A stretch of 62,594 nucleotides of DNA, counting the filler. It is 11 parts of 11 records of this genome, joined end to end, with 100 filler letters (N's around TTAATTAATTAA, not from the genome) between each part and the next. Parts side by side here need not be neighbours in the genome. Positions count along the whole stretch, not along the records: positions 5,178 to 11,748 come from SRR31156797_79098; 10 more parts are not named here. One strand, given 5' to 3'. The translations under genes and the position numbers were made by a program. Positions 5,078 through 11,848 of this stretch are shown here, one piece after another. The first letter of the stretch is position 1. Each line of letters starts with the position of its first letter. Below the pieces are notes generated by a model that worked only from the letters and a program-made list of their open reading frames with translations, did no database searches and had not been told where the DNA came from.

Positions 5078-5177
5078 NNNNNNNNNNNNNNNNNNNNNNN
5101 NNNNNNNNNNNNNNNNNNNNNTTAATTAATTAANNNNNNNNNNNNNNNNNNNNNNNNNNNNNNNNNNNNNNNNNNNN
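5078..5177. other. Artificial contig linker (N-run/TTAATTAATTAA/N-run); identical linkers at 11749-11848, 17756-17855, 23256-23355, 28611-28710, 34504-34603, 40080-40179, 45443-45542, 52206-52305 and 57475-57574
   Basis: 100-nt spacers with a six-frame stop cassette; genes are truncated and GC content shifts at the linkers. Confidence 0.99.
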
Positions 5178-5265
5178 GGGATGGCATTAGAATCCCCATC
5201 AGCAGGGCAATAATGGCGATGACGACCAGCAACTCGATCAACGTGAAGGCATGCTGTCTCTTCAT
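5178..5265 (-). CDS. Prepilin-type N-terminal cleavage/methylation domain protein (planctomycete type), 3' truncated
   Basis: MKRQHAFTLIELLVVIAIIALLMGILMPS; GAGGTG RBS upstream. Confidence 0.85.
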
Positions 5266-5479
5266 GGCTTGCACCTCAAACACGACACTTTTTCCATTCG
5301 TTCCGTTGTCAACGGCGAGCATGGTACGCTGTGACTCTTGGAGTCTTGTGAGAACAACGTTAGTTTCGCGCTAGCCGTTTCATGGCGACGGTCTGTCGAT
5401 AACGTTTGACATGTTCGCTCTACCGCGTGGGCGACGGCAGGTTCGTTAGATTTCTCTAATCTGGATGCCTCTACTTTCC

Positions 5480-5507
5480 AGCATAACGCTATGCCTGCCA
5501 ATGTCAA
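5480..5507 (-). promoter_or_regulatory. Putative sigma70 promoter for the prepilin-like gene
   Basis: Minus strand TTGACA-N16-TATGCT. Confidence 0.4.
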
Positions 5508-6008
5508 CCGAAAAGGCCGGGGTCCACACTGGCAGCGCCGGCCTCGGTTTGACATTTCTTATGTTCGCTGCCGGTCAAACAACCCGGCAGAACTGGCGAT
5601 TCAGTCGCCCAGGGTCCCGACGACCTCCACGTGGGCGATCGCCCGCCACCGGCCATTGCCGGCACCATCCTTCACAAAGCCCGCATCGGCCCCCTTGGGG
5701 AGGTAACTGAATCCTAGTGTCAACCACATCGAAATCCAACAATCGGCCGGTAGCCTTTCCGGTTTCACTGGCGAATGTGTCCCGTTCATCGTATGAGGTG
5801 TGTCTTGAGAAAAGGAGCCATCCAGGCCCGATCTGTGGCCCCATGGCAGGGGGGACGCTTCTGTTTTTCCTTTCTTTTCCTGTTGCCGATGGGCTCTGCC
5901 TTTGCTTTCCTGGGACATAGTACGCTCACGCGGGCTGGTGTCCGGACGCTCCGGGAGTGCGCCGCCGTCTGAATTGAAGCGAAGTGACATTGAGGAGATT
6001 GCACAGAG

Positions 6009-7178
6009 ATGACAACGAGAGAGAATCTTCCCGGCTGGAAAGACAAGGTGTTGTTCACGCCGGGACCGCTGACGACGAGTCGAACGGTCAAGCAGGCGAT
6101 GCTCCGGGATCTTGGATCGCGGGATCACGAATTCATCGGCATCGTTCGTGACATCCGACGCCGTCTGGTGGAGTTGGGCGAAGCCAAGGAGTCGGAGTAT
6201 ACCGCCATCCTGATGCAGGGCAGTGGCACGTACGGCCTGGAAGCAGTCGTCTCCTCCGCCATTGGCCCGCAGGGCAAGCTGGTGGTCGTCGTCAACGGCG
6301 CGTACGGGCGGCGGATTGCGAAGATGGCCGCCGTCCTCGGCATCGAAACGCACGTGCTCGAGTTCCCCGAGAATGTCAAACCCGATCTGAAGCAGATTGA
6401 TGCCGTGCTCCAGGCCGATCCCGATATCGCCATGCTGGTCGTTGTCCATTGCGAGACGACGACGGGCATCGTCAATCCCATTGCCGAGATCGGGGCGCTG
6501 GCCAAGGGGGCCGGGGTGGACTACTTTGTGGATGCCATGAGCAGCTTCGGGGCGATTCCCGTCAACCTGGCGGAGTGTCACATCGACTATCTCGTCTCAT
6601 CCGCCAACAAGTGCATCGAGGGGGTCCCCGGCTTTTCGTTTGTCCTGGCCAAACTCAGTTGTCTCAAGAAGACGCAGGGCTACGCGCGGAGTCTGAGCCT
6701 CGATCTCTACGAGCAGTGGAACGGCCTGGAGCAAAACGGGCAATTCCGGTTCACGCCCCCGACGCATACGCTGCTGGCCTTCCAGCAAGCCTTGCTCGAG
6801 ATGGAGGCGGAGGGCGGCGTCGAAGGTCGCGCCGCGCGCTATGAAGCGAACTATCGCACGCTCGTCGACGGGATGCGAAAACTGGGCTTCCAGGAGTATT
6901 TGACGCCGGAGGACCAGGGCTACATCATCACCTCTTTCCGCTATCCCGACGATCCCGATTTCAGTTTTCATCGGTTCTATGACTTATTGAACGCGCGCGA
7001 CTACGTTATCTATCCGGGCAAAGTCAGTGACGCGGAGTGCTTCCGCATCGGCAACATCGGTCGCATCGCTCAAGCCGATGTCAGAGACCTGCTGGCCGCC
7101 ATCGCGGCGGTGCTCGAGGAGATGGGGGTCGAGCTGAAAACCGTGCGGACGACGGGCGGGGAGACGACTGTCAAATGA
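6009..7178 (+). CDS. phnW: 2-aminoethylphosphonate--pyruvate transaminase
   Basis: LFTPGP, GSGT, VHCETTTG, DAMSSFG, SSANKCIEGVPGF (PLP Lys) and FRFTPPTH; linked to phnX. Confidence 0.95.
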   Translation: MTTRENLPGWKDKVLFTPGPLTTSRTVKQAMLRDLGSRDHEFIGIVRDIRRRLVELGEAKESEYTAILMQGSGTYGLEAVVSSAIGPQGKLVVVVNGAYGRRIAKMAAVLGIETHVLEFPENVKPDLKQIDAVLQADPDIAMLVVVHCETTTGIVNPIAEIGALAKGAGVDYFVDAMSSFGAIPVNLAECHIDYLVSSANKCIEGVPGFSFVLAKLSCLKKTQGYARSLSLDLYEQWNGLEQNGQFRFTPPTHTLLAFQQALLEMEAEGGVEGRAARYEANYRTLVDGMRKLGFQEYLTPEDQGYIITSFRYPDDPDFSFHRFYDLLNARDYVIYPGKVSDAECFRIGNIGRIAQADVRDLLAAIAAVLEEMGVELKTVRTTGGETTVK

Positions 7179-8323
7179 AGATACTGTGCTTAGGTGGGGC
7201 AGGCCGCATCTGTCGCGAAGCGATTCTCGATCTGGTCCAGACCTCTGATGCCGCCAGGATTACGGTTGCCGATGCGAACGAACAGGCAGGGCGGGAGGTG
7301 ACGGCCTGGCTGGATGATCCGAGAGTGGACTTCTGCGTTGCCAATGTCCGGGACGAAGAAGCTACGGTGGCGTTGATGCGAGACTACGATCTCGTGATGG
7401 ACGGGACGCCGATTTCGTTGAACGATGCGTCGGCCGCCTGTATGGCCACGGCCGGTGTGCATGGCATCAACTTGAACGGGATGAGCAGTGAGTGGGATCT
7501 GGACGAGGCGTTCAAGGCCAGCGGCAAGACCCTCGTGCCCGGCATGGGCATGACGCCCGGCATCACAAACTTGATGGCCATGTTTGCCGCTGACAAACTC
7601 GATGAGGTGGATTCGGTACGGTGCAGTCACGGCGCGTTTCGGCCCATTGCCTTCTCCGAGGCCATTGCCGAGACGACCCGGGTTGAATACGATCCCAACC
7701 TGACCTCGCGGGTGGTCTTCGAGGACGGGCAGTTCGTCCAGGTGCCGCCTTTCGCGCGTCCACGGACGATCGAACTTCCCGAACCGTACGGAACGCACGA
7801 GCAGTACATCATCCCGCATCCCGAACCGCTGACTCTGTCCCGATCGCTGGCCGCCAAGGGCGTGCGCCTGGTCGAGGCCAGGGGCACATGGCCGCCCAGG
7901 AACATGGCCTTGCTCAAGGCCTTGTATGAATGGGGCTTCATGGAAAACGGATCGGTTTGCGTCGGTGGGACCGAGGTCGGCGTCCTGGATGCCATCTTCG
8001 CCCATTTGCGGCGGAGCGATGCGGGTACGACGACCGATCTCAATGGCTATGCGTTGCATGTCGAGGTGGAGGGACGAAAGGGCGGCGCGCCCGTTGCCCT
8101 CGTCTTGACCCACACGCACCCGCCGTCCGACGGTTCCGTGCCGGACTGGGCGGGTCTGAGGGCCTACACGCGCTGTGTCGGCATTCCGCTGGCCATCGGG
8201 GCTCAACTCATCGCGACCGGACAGGTCCAGGGTGCGGGTGTCATGCCGCCGGAATTGGCTTTCGATCCCGCCACCGTATTCGAGATGCTCGAGAAGCGAC
8301 GGATATTCGTGCATGAGCGATAG
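7175..8323 (+). CDS. Saccharopine dehydrogenase / lysine 6-dehydrogenase-family NAD(P)-dependent oxidoreductase
   Basis: Start overlaps the phnW stop (ATGA); Rossmann motif MKILCLGGAGRI; family motifs GMGMTPGITN and HPEPLTL. Confidence 0.85.
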   Translation: MKILCLGGAGRICREAILDLVQTSDAARITVADANEQAGREVTAWLDDPRVDFCVANVRDEEATVALMRDYDLVMDGTPISLNDASAACMATAGVHGINLNGMSSEWDLDEAFKASGKTLVPGMGMTPGITNLMAMFAADKLDEVDSVRCSHGAFRPIAFSEAIAETTRVEYDPNLTSRVVFEDGQFVQVPPFARPRTIELPEPYGTHEQYIIPHPEPLTLSRSLAAKGVRLVEARGTWPPRNMALLKALYEWGFMENGSVCVGGTEVGVLDAIFAHLRRSDAGTTTDLNGYALHVEVEGRKGGAPVALVLTHTHPPSDGSVPDWAGLRAYTRCVGIPLAIGAQLIATGQVQGAGVMPPELAFDPATVFEMLEKRRIFVHER

Positions 8324-8395
8324 ATGTCAGCAGTGTGATCCCGTGCGCAAGGGAAATGACGACAGCAAACAACCGAGAAAAGAAGGAGCAAGTCA

Positions 8396-9235
8396 GTGAC
8401 GGATTTGAATGATGGCAGATATGTCGGGCCGGTGAAGGCGGTAATCAGCGATTTGGCAGGGACGACGGTGGACTTTGGCAGTTGCGCCCCGGCCGGGGCG
8501 TTCGTGGAGCTTTTCCAGCGCCATGGGATCGAGGCCACCACGGCTGATGCGCGGGGTCCGATGGGCATTCACAAGCGGGACCACATTCAGGCGATGCTGG
8601 AGATGCCCCACATCGCCGAACAATGGTCACGCGCCCAGGGCCGGGCCTGGACGGACGACGATCTGGAGACGCTCTACCAGGAATTCATCCCCATGCAACT
8701 GGCGGTGCTGCCGAACTATGGTGACGTCATCCCCGGCGTCGTGGAGACCGTGGCGGAATTGCGAAAACGAGGCATCCCGGTCGCGGTCAACACCGGATAC
8801 AACCGGGAGATGTTGGAGGTCGTGCTCCAGAAGGCCAGCGAGGGCGGCTTCGTCCCCGATGCCGCGTCTTGCGGCGGTGACGTGCCCAAGGGCCGGCCGG
8901 CTCCGTGGATGATCTACCGGTTGATGGAAGCGCTCGATGTGTATCCCTTGCAGGCCGTGGTCAAGATAGGCGACACGATCGCCGACATCGAGGCAGGCCT
9001 CAATGCCGGTGTCTGGACGGTCGGCGTCACGAAGACCGGCAATCTCGTCGGTCTCACGAAAGACGAGCTGGAGGCCCTGACGCCGGAGGAATTGGAGCAG
9101 AAAGTGGCGGACGCCACGCGGAAATTCGAGGACGCGCGGGCCCATTATGTGATAGACTCATTTGCGGGTCTGCCCGCGGTGATTGCCGACATCGAGAAGC
9201 GGCTGAAGCAGGCCTCTGGCGTGTCGGTTGCATAA
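8396..9235 (+). CDS. phnX: Phosphonoacetaldehyde hydrolase (phosphonatase)
   Basis: HAD motif DLAGTTVDFG, Schiff-base Lys motif PMGIHKRDHI, GRPAPWM and KIGDTIADI; GTG start with AAGGAG RBS. Confidence 0.95.
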   Translation: MTDLNDGRYVGPVKAVISDLAGTTVDFGSCAPAGAFVELFQRHGIEATTADARGPMGIHKRDHIQAMLEMPHIAEQWSRAQGRAWTDDDLETLYQEFIPMQLAVLPNYGDVIPGVVETVAELRKRGIPVAVNTGYNREMLEVVLQKASEGGFVPDAASCGGDVPKGRPAPWMIYRLMEALDVYPLQAVVKIGDTIADIEAGLNAGVWTVGVTKTGNLVGLTKDELEALTPEELEQKVADATRKFEDARAHYVIDSFAGLPAVIADIEKRLKQASGVSVA

Positions 9236-9262
9236 ATGCGGCTGTTTTCAAGAGGATGGGAC

Positions 9263-11563
9263 ATGAGAACCAATGCCTGCCTGCTGCTCTGTTGGTTGCT
9301 TGCGGCGACTGTCACTCCGGATGCCACGGCCCAGGCGGCGGAAAGGACGCCCCGGAGTCACCCGGTGGTGTTGGGCCCTTATGTGCGCTACGTGACGCCC
9401 TCCGAGGCGGTGGTCTCTTGGTGGACGTCTGAGGCCGGCCCGTCCATTCTGGAATACGGCTTGGCCGGCCCCGGTGCGAAGTACTCGCCCAGCATCCAGT
9501 TGCAGGGAGAGCACCGGGGGCAGCTCAACCACCGTCTGGAAGACGCTCAGCCCAAGACCCGTCACGCCGTGTCGATCGAAGGATTGCGGCCTAATGACGT
9601 CTACGCCTACCGCGTCACAGCAATTGCGGAGGTAGAGGAACGGAGCACGGACGTCTACGAGTTGGACACGGCCCTGAACTACAGCGTGTATCCGTTGCCA
9701 GCCAATGTCCCGTTCTCGACCGACCCAACGCGCCAGGCGCAGGTTGAAGGGGTCGTCAATGAGATGGTGAAGCAGGGTGTGACGAAGGGCTACTGCCTGG
9801 TGTGGGGGCTCGTCGACGGTTCGCTGGCCCATGCCCTGGCCGCTCGTACCGACTTAACCGTGGTGGGGCTCGACGAAGATGCCGATCGGGTGGCCGCGGT
9901 TCGCCGGCGCTTGTACCAGGGGAGCGTGTACGGAACACGCATCACCGCTCAGCACATCGAGAGCCTGGCGGACGTGTCCTATCCGAGCAATTTCGCCAAT
10001 CTCATTGTCTCCGAGCGAATGCTGTTCGAAGGGCGCTGTCCGGGCCCGGCGGCCGAGATGTTTCGTCTCCTGCGTCCGCGCGATGGGGCTGCGCTTCTGT
10101 GGGGTCCTTCGTCCGGCGTTGACGCGATCGAAACCTGGCTGAATACCGCACTGATCGATTTCCAAACTCAGTCGACTGCGATGGGGCCGTTCTGCATGGT
10201 TCAGAAGCAAGTGTCGCCTGGGGTGGGCTCCTGGACCCACCAGTATGGCGATGCGGGCAATACCGCCAACAGTCACGACGACCTGGGTGGGGCTGTCGGC
10301 ACGGACGATCTGCACGTGCAGTGGCTGGGCCGGCCCGGGGCCGATTTCGGAGCGGACCGCAACCCACGCATGCCGCCACCGCTGGCGGCCAATGGTCGGT
10401 TGTTTCATCAGGGCATGAACCGCATGGTGGCCCTCGACGCCTACAACGGCAGCATCCTGTGGTCGCTGGAGATTCCGGCCATGCAACGCGTCAACCTCCC
10501 GCGCGACGCCAGCAATTGGTGTACCGATAGCGACTCGCTCTATGTGGCCGTCAAAGACAAATGCTGGGCGATCGAACATTACGACGGTGGCCTCACACAC
10601 GTCTTTGATCTGCCCGATGGATTTGCGGCGCAGGACTACGATTGGGGCTGCGTGGCTCAGAACGATGGCATCCTGTTCGCCAGTGCCGTCCAGAAGGACA
10701 CGGCGTACACCGATTTCTGGGGCGGCGCGTCCTGGTACGACAAGACCAGCGGCTACGGAACGGAGAAGGTGTGCAGCGACGCGCTGTTTGCCTACGACCT
10801 GCGCACGAAACAACTGCTCTGGACCCGGCAGACCGGTCTCGTGATCAACACGACCGTGGGAGTGAGCGAAGAGGCCGTCTTCTTCGTTGAGTCACGCAAC
10901 GAACAACTGAAGGCATCAGCGGGCCGCCGACTCAACGACGCGCGTCTGTGGTCGGACCAGTATCTGGTGGCGCTGGATCGGCAGACGGGGCAGCCGCGTT
11001 GGGAGAAACCGATCGATACGGCTGACGGCATTGTCGTCTTCTTTCTCGCCTGTACCGACGAGGCCGTCGTCATCAGTTCCTCGGTGGCGGGGAACTACCA
11101 TCTGTACAGGTTCGATGCCCAGACCGGCGCCCAACAGTGGCACGCCGAGCATGCGTGGCCCAACGACAACCATGGTGGTCACATGCAGCATCCTGTGGTC
11201 CTGGCCGACCGAGTCTTTCTGGAGCCCTGCGGCTACGACCTCCGGACGGGGCAACGCGTCACCTCGTCCATGGGGCGACATGAGGGCTGCGCCACCTACT
11301 GCGGCACGAAGCATGCCCTGGTCTATCGCGGCCAGTCCCGTCGCGTGGCCATGTGGGACTTCGGCTCGGGCCGGATCACGAGCTGGTACAACCTCCGCCC
11401 CAGTTGCTGGCTCAGCACGGTCGCCGGGGAGGGGATGGTGCTTTCGCCCGAAGGGGGGGGAGGCTGTAGTTGCGGAAACTGGTTGGAAACCTCTTTGGCG
11501 TTCGCGCCGCGTGAGCCAGCGACTACGGCCCGTGCGGCATCGAATGCGATCTCACCCAAATGA
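9263..11563 (+). CDS. Secreted multidomain protein: purple-acid-phosphatase-N-like Fn3 domain, SAM-methyltransferase-like fold and PQQ-like beta-propeller
   Basis: Signal peptide; LGPYVRYVTPSEAVVSW...H.V.I.GL.P...Y.YRV; GYCLVWG...LTVVGLDED; WTHQYGDAGNT; repeated ALDxxxGxxxW blades; C-terminal RPSCW...GGGCSC. Alternative start at 9236. Confidence 0.75.
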   Translation: MRTNACLLLCWLLAATVTPDATAQAAERTPRSHPVVLGPYVRYVTPSEAVVSWWTSEAGPSILEYGLAGPGAKYSPSIQLQGEHRGQLNHRLEDAQPKTRHAVSIEGLRPNDVYAYRVTAIAEVEERSTDVYELDTALNYSVYPLPANVPFSTDPTRQAQVEGVVNEMVKQGVTKGYCLVWGLVDGSLAHALAARTDLTVVGLDEDADRVAAVRRRLYQGSVYGTRITAQHIESLADVSYPSNFANLIVSERMLFEGRCPGPAAEMFRLLRPRDGAALLWGPSSGVDAIETWLNTALIDFQTQSTAMGPFCMVQKQVSPGVGSWTHQYGDAGNTANSHDDLGGAVGTDDLHVQWLGRPGADFGADRNPRMPPPLAANGRLFHQGMNRMVALDAYNGSILWSLEIPAMQRVNLPRDASNWCTDSDSLYVAVKDKCWAIEHYDGGLTHVFDLPDGFAAQDYDWGCVAQNDGILFASAVQKDTAYTDFWGGASWYDKTSGYGTEKVCSDALFAYDLRTKQLLWTRQTGLVINTTVGVSEEAVFFVESRNEQLKASAGRRLNDARLWSDQYLVALDRQTGQPRWEKPIDTADGIVVFFLACTDEAVVISSSVAGNYHLYRFDAQTGAQQWHAEHAWPNDNHGGHMQHPVVLADRVFLEPCGYDLRTGQRVTSSMGRHEGCATYCGTKHALVYRGQSRRVAMWDFGSGRITSWYNLRPSCWLSTVAGEGMVLSPEGGGGCSCGNWLETSLAFAPREPATTARAASNAISPK

Positions 11564-11577
11564 CTGGAGCCGAGAAC

Positions 11578-11748
11578 ATGAATCGACCCCCGGCTATTGT
11601 CCTGTTGACGGCCGCCTGCATAGCAGGCCTGCTGCCGATCCCCGCCCTGGCCGAGGATTGGCCGACGTATCGCCACGACAACCGGCGCAGCGGTGTCACG
11701 AGCGAGTCGCTGGATATCCCCCTACGGAGGGCGTGGGAATACAACTCC
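11578..11748 (+). CDS. PQQ-like beta-propeller protein, N-terminus only (truncated)
   Basis: Signal peptide followed by AEDWPTYRHDNRRSG...L..PL...W, the typical N-terminus of this planctomycete family. Confidence 0.75.
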
Positions 11749-11848
11749 NNNNNNNNNNNNNNNNNNNNNNNNNNNNNNNNNNNNNNNNNNNNTTAATTAA
11801 TTAANNNNNNNNNNNNNNNNNNNNNNNNNNNNNNNNNNNNNNNNNNNN

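Follow-up and report, generated by a model that had tools for sequence, protein, structure and literature searches.

Why should a gene for a saccharopine-dehydrogenase-like oxidoreductase lie between phnW and phnX, which encode the 2-aminoethylphosphonate (AEP):pyruvate transaminase and the phosphonoacetaldehyde hydrolase of AEP catabolism? AEP and its N-methylated forms belong to the most abundant phosphonates in nature, and microbial communities recover phosphorus and nitrogen when these compounds are broken down. The window analyzed here, a 62.6-kb stretch of DNA (62,594 nucleotides), is composed of 11 unrelated contigs (5.0-6.7 kb, GC 0.28-0.62) joined by spacers of 44 N, 12 nt and 44 N (e.g., 5078-5177 and 11749-11848), and gene neighborhoods are valid only within one contig. 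The contig that carries the dehydrogenase gene (5178-11748; 6571 bp, GC 0.616) provides about 6.5 kb of native context, with four genes in the same orientation: phnW, the dehydrogenase gene, phnX, and an open reading frame (ORF) of 775 codons.

In the broad sense, the dehydrogenase is highly likely to be an accessory enzyme of AEP catabolism. More narrowly, we assign a probability of about 0.42 to the reading that it is an NAD-linked enzyme which oxidatively cleaves the C-N bond of N-alkyl (N-methyl) AEP and so forms phosphonoacetaldehyde, a prediction that extends to its cofactor, substrate, direction and products alike. The first-pass annotation of this DNA had proposed a new phosphonate catabolic step at this position, and that overall idea is partly supported: the linkage of the dehydrogenase to phosphonate genes is established.

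Linkage to phosphonate genes

PhnW scored 495.9 bits against NF010006 (cut-off 296) and 490 bits against TIGR02326 (cut-off 400.8), and PhnX scored 340.3 bits against TIGR01422 (cut-off 220). Together with the sequence and the ORFs, these equivalog scores confirmed the layout first described for this locus, in which the dehydrogenase gene overlaps the phnW stop codon (ATGA) and stands before phnX (Table 1). The ATG at 7175 was taken as its start because homologs begin with MK(I/V)LCLGG. The overlap points to translational coupling of the dehydrogenase gene to phnW, and a junction with zero gap between the same two genes was also present in an Acidobacteriaceae locus (L061). The dehydrogenase gene is separated from phnX by 72 bp, with AAGGAG located 8 nt 5' of the phnX GTG.

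We compared gene neighborhoods across 80 loci, the best 80 of 301 from an alignment-based scan with one genome per species. A locus search with the single protein returned one close locus and four archaeal relatives (L002-L005, 23-26% identity), the latter being excluded from the context counts. ORFs were chosen with conservation weighting, clustered, and named by Pfam and NCBIfam, and all loci were re-scored by tblastn with named representatives. A phosphonate marker was located within 8 kb of the dehydrogenase gene in 50 of the 80 loci. PhnW was found in 35 loci at this distance, the AEP ABC importer equivalogs PhnS2 and PhnU2 in 33 and 32, PhnX in 28, PbfA (above the NF049939 cut-off) in 12, phn_DUF6 in eight, PhnA-like proteins in four, and PhnD and PhnX-like proteins in two each. 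Twenty-three of the 35 PhnW genes were on the same strand as the dehydrogenase gene and no more than 300 bp from it. The first-pass annotation had called for a survey of this kind, and homologs did not turn out to be mostly unlinked to phosphonate genes.

Phosphonate-linked loci occurred in nearly every clade of the tree and in at least seven phyla, with lineages in Planctomycetota, Desulfobacterota, SAR324, Bacteroidota (where the gene stands behind a SusC/SusD pair), Acidobacteriota, Bacillota, and Verrucomicrobiota. The order in Bacillota was phnS2-T2-U2-phnX-phnW-dehydrogenase-deoR, and regulators of the DeoR, LysR or GntR types were found in the dehydrogenase neighborhoods. The phnW-dehydrogenase-phnX arrangement is not a matter of chance; it recurs across phyla. 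DAO-type FAD oxidases (PF01266) were not among the 25 commonest families (at least two members each) of 106 otherwise unannotated neighbor ORFs (300-560 aa, within 6 kb), which is compatible with the dehydrogenase replacing them. Carboxyspermidine decarboxylase was also absent from the recurrent neighbor families, in which no dedicated search for it was made.

Co-occurrence was also evident at the level of whole genomes. In the order of Brevibacillus, 28 of 61 genomes had the dehydrogenase gene and 32 had PhnW. All 28 genomes with the gene had PhnW, versus 4 of the 33 without it (Fisher p = 2.6e-13, uncorrected for shared ancestry), and in genomes with two copies each copy adjoined its own PhnW. 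Three of the four PhnW-positive genomes lacking the gene were examined; two contained decayed remnants of it between phnW and deoR (L104 9935-10348; L106 10542-11130) and one had a clean gap. Because these remnants or gap lie beside a transporter, phnX and phnW that are intact in all three clusters, the dehydrogenase is dispensable for the core AEP pathway and is accessory to it, not core. Substitution by a FAD oxidase in such clusters was considered as well, but only the remnants or the clean absence were found.

Where the locus itself was without PhnW, the genome carried PhnW above the cut-off elsewhere in five of five cases. In four Desulfobacterales genomes, the regions examined around sub-threshold PhnW-like genes (L090-L093) all proved to contain a variant AEP operon without PhnX. 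Its genes encode two citrate-synthase-like proteins, an acylating aldehyde dehydrogenase and a PhnW-like transaminase that is divergent (about 290 bits against TIGR02326, under the cut-off), and AEP-type importers, a PhnX-like gene or PbfA lie nearby. It adjoins the dehydrogenase gene in four loci (L056, L040, L070, and L023).

Several loci had further distinct gene arrangements. In Brevibacillus and Scopulibacillus (L022, L030, L034, and L072, also L035 and L052), phnX/phnW and the dehydrogenase gene share the locus with microcompartment genes encoding BMC-H shell proteins, EutN, an acylating acetaldehyde dehydrogenase and a PduL-type phosphotransacylase, which looks like a metabolosome that traps the acetaldehyde released by PhnX. 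Fused PhnX-PhnW frames of 639-669 aa were present in several Brevibacillus and Clostridia loci (L050 6053-7972; L074 and L076 6032-7978; L077 5985-7994), and further genomes had matching open frames of 643-671 aa. Pairs of PbfA paralogs, divergent or tandem and both above the NF049939 cut-off, were located beside the dehydrogenase gene in Syntrophales, Desulfobacterales and SAR324 (L014 1716-4750, L040, L070, L082, and L023), and the second copy may have a different substrate. An Anaerovoracaceae metagenome-assembled genome (MAG) carries, apart from its dehydrogenase locus, a DeoR-PhnX-FeADH-PhnD-PhnC-PhnE-PhnE cluster (L102 5065-11462) that resembles the 2-hydroxyethylphosphonate route described in PMC13576164.

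Family, fold and predicted cofactor

The dehydrogenase contains a PF03435 domain (residues 3-121; 55.3 bits, cut-off 25.1), with the GxGxxG-type motif GGAGRIC, and a PF16653 domain (residues 125-375; 62.4 bits, cut-off 31). With both domains and a matching fold it belongs to the saccharopine dehydrogenase superfamily. These were the only Pfam domains found in the protein, with no DAO/FAD domain, and no NCBIfam model came near its cut-off, the best being carboxynorspermidine synthase (NF043000; 21.2 bits versus 800).

In a word-indexed search of 5.8 billion proteins, 8000 candidates were scored, of which 1231 matched with E <= 0.001. The top 120 of the 1231 were all full-length and 63-85% identical, with labels of Planctomycetota, Desulfobacterota, and Poribacteria. 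An exhaustive HMMER search of 1.84 billion representatives of 50%-identity clusters gave 1789 matches with E <= 0.001, only 85 of them with E <= 1e-30; among the 150 representatives listed, the sole full-length relative above 50% identity was P0121 (56%), and the next full-length relatives were at 39% or less. Across the 80 loci the dehydrogenase was 57-73% identical to the window protein, and 85 of 382 positions were invariant in a set of 80 sequences made up of the window protein and 79 of the 80 loci. The locus omitted from this set (L058 7989-9179, a Desulfobacteraceae MAG) has a gene split into ORFs of 306 aa and 71 aa, possibly as the result of misassembly or a frameshift. When the tree was rooted with 14 relatives (31-39% identity), a long branch (0.95 substitutions per site) led to the group. 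Since identities fall sharply, to 39% or less, beyond the group, the family is a discrete, slowly evolving ortholog group. Its members are currently labeled "saccharopine dehydrogenase" or "lysine 6-dehydrogenase". Sister families were considered as a chemical hint, but the aligned relatives at 31-39% identity diverge too much to support a locus search, and the nearest (P0130) is archaeal, with a CitMHS-type transporter and unrelated genes as neighbors, and was uninformative.

An AlphaFold2 model of the dehydrogenase built from 25 sequences (pLDDT 92, pTM 0.90) was compared with the PDB using Foldseek. The best match was 8deb (TM-score 0.82), and the carboxyspermidine dehydrogenases (CASDH) 8deb, 8h4z/8h52, 4ina and 4rl6 were at 0.80-0.83 with 17-18% identity; 4INA and 4RL6 are misannotated carboxyspermidine/carboxynorspermidine dehydrogenases. 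The P. horikoshii L-lysine dehydrogenase 3abi had a TM-score of 0.76 (0.76/0.82; 19% identity), saccharopine reductases were at 0.69-0.78, one of them at 0.77, and homospermidine synthases were at about 0.6. The superfamily matches 8deb, 4ina, 8h52, 3abi and 5l78 together spanned 0.76-0.83. A profile search of the PDB agreed in order. In that search 8deb had an E-value of 4.4e-16, and a full-length relationship to the characterized lysine 6-dehydrogenase was not obtained, as 3abi was matched over residues 1-145 only, corresponding to the Rossmann domain (E 6.4e-07). By profile and model, the closest characterized relatives are thus CASDHs, with saccharopine and lysine-6 dehydrogenases more distant. 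The first-pass assignment to a saccharopine/lysine-6-dehydrogenase family therefore holds at the level of the superfamily, but not for the nearest characterized enzymes.

The window protein shares the Rossmann and alpha/beta catalytic domains with the CASDHs of B. fragilis (8DEB) and H. pylori (8H4Z/8H52), which were its best profile and fold matches. Apart from the low identity, it differs from them in being without the residues for the NADP 2'-phosphate and without the middle Glu of the catalytic motif, and its context is catabolic and phosphonate-related, whereas CASDHs belong to polyamine biosynthesis. Saccharopine reductase (LYS9, AASS domain) and L-lysine 6-dehydrogenase (3ABI) share PF03435, PF16653 and the fold (TM-score 0.76-0.78) with the window protein, as well as the type of chemistry, an NAD(P)-linked CH2-N oxidation to an aldehyde and an amine. 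Their identity is only 15-19%, with weak or partial profile matches, and they are without the His-x-Glu motif that the window family has (PMC10413350).

In the B. fragilis CASDH (BfCASDH), His228 is the proposed general base, Glu230 its partner, and Ser144 a proton relay (PMC10413350). Invariant His215, Glu217 and Thr131 of the dehydrogenase align with these three residues in the HMMER alignment, and Asp173, conserved in at least 90% of alignment A1, aligns with BfCASDH Glu188. In place of BfCASDH Glu229 the window protein has Pro, and its relatives have Pro, Ala or Ser. The CASDH proton relay thus appears to be kept, but not the full His-Glu-Glu triad. A preference for NAD is typically marked by an acidic residue where beta-2 ends. 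In the window dehydrogenase, Asp33 (invariant), Asn35 and Ala38 align with BfCASDH Ser34, Thr36 and Lys39, which hold the 2'-phosphate of NADP (PMC10413350). Because an invariant Asp33 occupies the 2'-phosphate site, the cofactor is predicted to be NAD rather than NADP, which narrows the NAD(P) linkage of the first-pass annotation to NAD. Invariant S151, H152, R156, S161, T167, T168, Y292, and H295 map by alignment to the two capping loops of the BfCASDH active site, and we conjecture that such a set of Ser, Thr, Arg and His residues would be appropriate for a phosph(on)ate substrate, which is anionic.

To our knowledge, every characterized enzyme with this fold either forms or cleaves a bond that links an amine nitrogen to an aldehyde-derived CH2, with an anionic group a few atoms away. 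The aldehydes concerned are aspartate semialdehyde, aminoadipate semialdehyde and lysine C6. Oxidoreduction of a C-N bond, as expected from the family type at first pass, is compatible with both the fold and the conserved catalytic relay. Phosphonoacetaldehyde is a plausible partner, since it is the hub of every AEP pathway and fits the aldehyde pattern of the fold.

Substrate and direction of the reaction

In the reaction that we propose, a soluble NAD-dependent C-N oxidoreductase on a CASDH scaffold would take a hydride from C2 of an N-substituted AEP, and the genomic context suggests that N-methyl- or N,N-dimethyl-AEP would be the most likely substrate. Removal of the hydride would leave an iminium ion, and water activated by a His215/Glu217/Thr131 relay would hydrolyze it to phosphonoacetaldehyde and free (methyl)amine. 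The phosphonoacetaldehyde would be consumed by PhnX, or by PhnY/PhnA or a CoA-dependent system in other lineages, and its cleavage would pull the otherwise unfavorable oxidation forward. The dehydrogenase would then be the oxygen-independent counterpart of the FAD enzymes PbfB/C/D. N-methyl-AEP and N,N-dimethyl-AEP are natural compounds that PhnW cannot use (PMC12366243), and the known FAD enzymes for N-methyl-AEP yield phosphonoacetaldehyde and methylamine (PMC10590968). These two are the most plausible substrates because they are natural and refractory to PhnW, because the products of the known enzymes match, and because genes for methyl-group metabolism cluster with the dehydrogenase gene in anaerobes.

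Eleven of the 80 loci carried parts of corrinoid methyltransferase systems; every one of these loci came from an anaerobic lineage, and no fewer than six separate lineages were represented. The parts include MttB-family, corrinoid, MtaA/CmuA-like and MtmB-like proteins as well as a pterin-binding methyltransferase. In two Desulfohalobiaceae MAGs (L011 and L021), phnD-C-E-E is followed by the dehydrogenase gene and, directly downstream, by MttB. The MttB genes of L021 (9196-10701), L011 (7406-8965) and L027 (5349-6437) contain an in-frame TAG at a conserved site (...SWTSGG*VDSK...), and on account of this TAG they are of the pyrrolysine type. An NAD-linked N-alkyl-AEP dehydrogenase could provide an oxygen-free entry for N-methylated aminophosphonates, acting in anaerobes alongside corrinoid methyltransferases that include pyrrolysine-type MttB, although we regard this extension of the proposal as doubtful. 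The same two MAG loci bear on a further idea, that the dehydrogenase recycles pyruvate for PhnW as a surrogate alanine dehydrogenase (AlaDH). In L021, which also has the dehydrogenase gene, a true AlaDH (TIGR00518, 515.8 bits) stands beside PhnW, and in L011 PhnW has a tblastn match to the same AlaDH as its neighbor. Because both loci hold a separate AlaDH, a role as pyruvate recycler was ruled out.

A number of observations weigh against the cleavage of N-alkyl AEP by this enzyme. The oxidation of amines by NAD is thermodynamically uphill. A pyrrolysine-type MttB is expected to use trimethylamine, which is not obtainable by dehydrogenating methylated AEP, and the MtmB-like neighbors are without pyrrolysine and may not indicate methylamine. 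In two sister loci (L033 and L049) the dehydrogenase gene follows an ABC importer and precedes the ethanolamine ammonia-lyase genes (eutABC), which are accompanied by microcompartment genes. Thirty of the 80 loci have no phosphonate marker within 8 kb, 15 of these being shorter than 10 kb, and a Verrucomicrobiota clade, where the gene is alone beside convergent unrelated genes, accounts for eight of the 30. Ten further genomes with unlinked loci had PhnW above the cut-off in two cases and PhnX above the cut-off in two; a PhnW-like match with E <= 1e-60 was present in nine of them, and none was found in G071. Lastly, only 4 of 27 PhnX genes directly adjoin the dehydrogenase gene, and its tight pairing with PhnW suits a product consumed by PhnW at least equally well.

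Such a product would arise if the bond on the other side of the nitrogen were cleaved, releasing AEP for PhnW. An opine-like N-(carboxyalkyl)-AEP would then give AEP and a 2-oxo acid, or N-methyl-AEP would give AEP and formaldehyde. We consider this unlikely, though it stands first among the alternatives. It explains why the pairing with PhnW is very tight and often translationally coupled, and why no Brevibacillales genome has the gene without an AEP transaminase. The corrinoid and one-carbon (C1) neighbors would suit the handling of a methyl group, and the gene order in L033 and L049 is readable in the same way, as ethanolamine freed for its lyase. Characterized members of the fold (CASDH, saccharopine reductase, and lysine 6-dehydrogenase), on the other hand, are known to oxidize an aldehyde-derived CH2 beside an anionic chain rather than an alpha-carbon or a methyl group, and we know of no natural carboxyalkyl-AEP. 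Furthermore, three clusters (L014, L070, and L082) hold the gene with PbfA and PhnA-like genes and no PhnW within 8 kb, and the FAD enzymes acting on N-methyl-AEP give phosphonoacetaldehyde and methylamine, not AEP and formaldehyde (PMC10590968).

Direct deamination of plain AEP comes after the release of AEP in our ranking and is unlikely as well. In this case AEP and NAD+ would give phosphonoacetaldehyde and ammonium, a pyruvate-independent route parallel to PhnW. The resemblance of the fold to 3abi, an enzyme for a terminal primary amine, would be in keeping with such a reaction, and some PbfD FAD enzymes oxidize plain AEP too (PMC10590968). Five loci have a consumer of phosphonoacetaldehyde but no PhnW within 8 kb, and G071 has the dehydrogenase and PhnX while lacking any PhnW-like match with E <= 1e-60. 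This genome is an incomplete MAG whose PhnX lies among unrelated genes, so it is uninformative as a case of PhnX without PhnW, and no clear case of PhnW replacement was found. G074, a second candidate with PhnX and no canonical PhnW, was equally uninformative, as its PhnX lies in a DeoR-PhnX-FeADH-PhnDCEE cluster of the hydroxyethylphosphonate type. Deamination would also duplicate PhnW, yet the gene is kept together with PhnW in all 28 Brevibacillales genomes that have it and is adjacent to it in 23 of 35 loci. Lysine dehydrogenase, in addition, is without the His-Glu-Glu motif (PMC10413350), of which the window family keeps the His and the second Glu.

It is improbable that the substrate lies outside phosphonate metabolism, with the protein a general amine/aldehyde oxidoreductase for N-methylated ethanolamine-type head groups, a polyamine-like compound, or acetaldehyde and an amine. 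Its linkage to AEP genes would then come about via the use of lipid head groups or the handling of acetaldehyde. The 30 loci without phosphonate markers and the eutABC/bacterial microcompartment neighbors in L033 and L049 could be read in this way, as could a choline/ethanolamine-kinase-like neighbor in nine loci. L010 has MttB, a short-chain dehydrogenase/reductase and an iron alcohol dehydrogenase beside the gene, without classical phosphonate genes. An identity of at least 57% and 85 invariant residues nevertheless make one conserved function likely, and phosphonate-specific genes dominate the context (AEP-type transporters, PhnW, PhnX, and PbfA). In Verrucomicrobiota the kinase genes are convergent rather than co-oriented, L033 and L049 count as one event since their sequences are sisters, and genomes with unlinked loci still have AEP operons elsewhere.

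A reductive direction as in CASDH, in which phosphonoacetaldehyde, an amine and NADH would give N-substituted AEP for storage, aldehyde detoxification or biosynthesis, is very improbable: the equilibrium favors amine formation and the CASDHs, as the closest characterized relatives, run in the condensing direction (PMC10413350), but the context is catabolic (importers, PhnX, and DeoR/LysR/GntR regulators), Asp33 predicts NAD rather than NADPH, and no phosphoenolpyruvate mutase or phosphonate-biosynthesis gene was among the annotated neighbors, for which no dedicated search was made.

The operon contig and the known ancillary enzymes

Table 1. Features of the operon contig (5178-11748), with positions counted along the whole window.
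Feature	Coordinates	Strand	Evidence
phnW, 2-aminoethylphosphonate:pyruvate transaminase, 389 aa	6009..7178	+	NF010006, TIGR02326, Pfam Aminotran_5
ATGA overlap of dehydrogenase ATG and phnW stop	7175..7178	+	direct sequence reading
Dehydrogenase, saccharopine-dehydrogenase superfamily, 382 aa	7175..8323	+	PF03435 and PF16653 above cut-offs
phnX, phosphonoacetaldehyde hydrolase, 279 aa, GTG start	8396..9235	+	TIGR01422, HAD Pfam domains
Secreted beta-propeller protein, 775 aa	9236..11563	+	PQQ_2 match
Non-coding stretch upstream of phnW, without convincing ORF	5323..6008	.	ORF list

The non-coding stretch upstream of phnW is presumed to be the promoter or regulatory region of the operon. An Rfam scan of the contig gave no match, a consensus promoter scan gave sites no more numerous than in shuffled sequence, and a terminator scan gave nothing usable. 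The ATG of the 775-aa protein directly follows the phnX stop codon, and an alternative start at 9263 precedes a signal-peptide-like segment. The protein contains PQQ-like beta-propeller repeats (PQQ_2, 44.2 bits, cut-off 27.6) and an N-terminal domain that is FN3-like or purple-acid-phosphatase-N-like (Pur_ac_phosph_N, 29.7 bits, just below the cut-off of 30). Relatives of it were located by tblastn near the dehydrogenase gene in three loci (L006, 39% identity; L078, 30%; L028, 28%). It is probably co-transcribed with the operon and may be its extracellular partner. The contig opens with a fragment of a prepilin-like N-terminus (FTLIELLVV...), a motif typical of Planctomycetota DUF1559 proteins, and the best relatives of the window dehydrogenase are labeled Thermoguttaceae and Pirellulaceae. 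Because of this motif and these labels, the contig is likely of Planctomycetota origin.

The oxidative cleavage of N-alkyl AEP proposed above is best compared with the reactions of PbfB, PbfC and PbfD. Their genes are likewise recurrent accessory genes of phnWX/phnWYA-type clusters, and the enzymes have been shown to make phosphonoacetaldehyde from an AEP derivative refractory to PhnW, the same role as is predicted for the dehydrogenase (PMC10590968). They are FAD enzymes of an unrelated fold, whereas the dehydrogenase would use a pyridine nucleotide and need neither O2 nor a quinone. Unlike them, it is found mainly in Bacillota, Desulfobacterota, Planctomycetota, Acidobacteriota, and Verrucomicrobiota.

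The first-pass annotation had listed PbfA and PbfB/C/D as the known ancillary enzymes, a list that was incomplete. It can be extended by PbfF, a PF02826 NAD-dependent racemase of hydroxy-AEP described only in Alphaproteobacteria (PMC12366243), and by PbfG/PhpC, dehydrogenases of hydroxyethylphosphonate that are Zn- or Fe-alcohol dehydrogenases (PMC13576164). These are pyridine-nucleotide enzymes too, were found through their recurrence in AEP clusters, and widen the range of phosphonates that reach phosphonoacetaldehyde. They differ from the dehydrogenase in acting on C-OH rather than C-N bonds, and PbfF has a D-2-hydroxyacid dehydrogenase fold. Neither belongs to the dehydrogenase family, and the different folds rule out that the dehydrogenase is itself PbfF or PbfG.

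The activity had not been recognized as described at first pass, and this agrees with a full-text literature search, with subscription-only literature outside its scope, that found no paper linking the family with phosphonate catabolism. In a term look-up, saccharopine, Brevibacillus and Paenibacillus were unmentioned in PMC13576164 and PMC10590968, and saccharopine, Firmicutes and Bacillota were unmentioned in PMC12366243. The dehydrogenase gene is real and well supported as an accessory gene of AEP catabolism, and the literature searched apparently does not describe it.

With this family, the ancillary enzymes that feed the hydrolytic AEP pathway would gain a member that recurs in the AEP clusters of unrelated bacteria. 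Every enzyme known so far to act on N-methyl-AEP is a flavoprotein and depends on oxygen or on an unknown respiratory acceptor (PMC10590968). If the proposed activity is correct, an NAD-linked enzyme would explain the use of N-methyl-AEP by strict anaerobes such as sulfate reducers, syntrophs and Planctomycetota, and by many soil Bacillota. The saccharopine/carboxyspermidine dehydrogenase superfamily would acquire a new reaction, and annotation pipelines would have a proper name for the family. The family is small and soluble and is present in cultivable Brevibacillus and Paenibacillus, which makes it directly testable. If the more doubtful extension to joint action with corrinoid methyltransferases also holds, trimethyl-, dimethyl- and monomethyl-AEP from phosphonolipids could be converted to phosphonoacetaldehyde and methylamines in anoxic sediments, and the phosphonate cycle would thereby be linked to methylamine and C1 metabolism.

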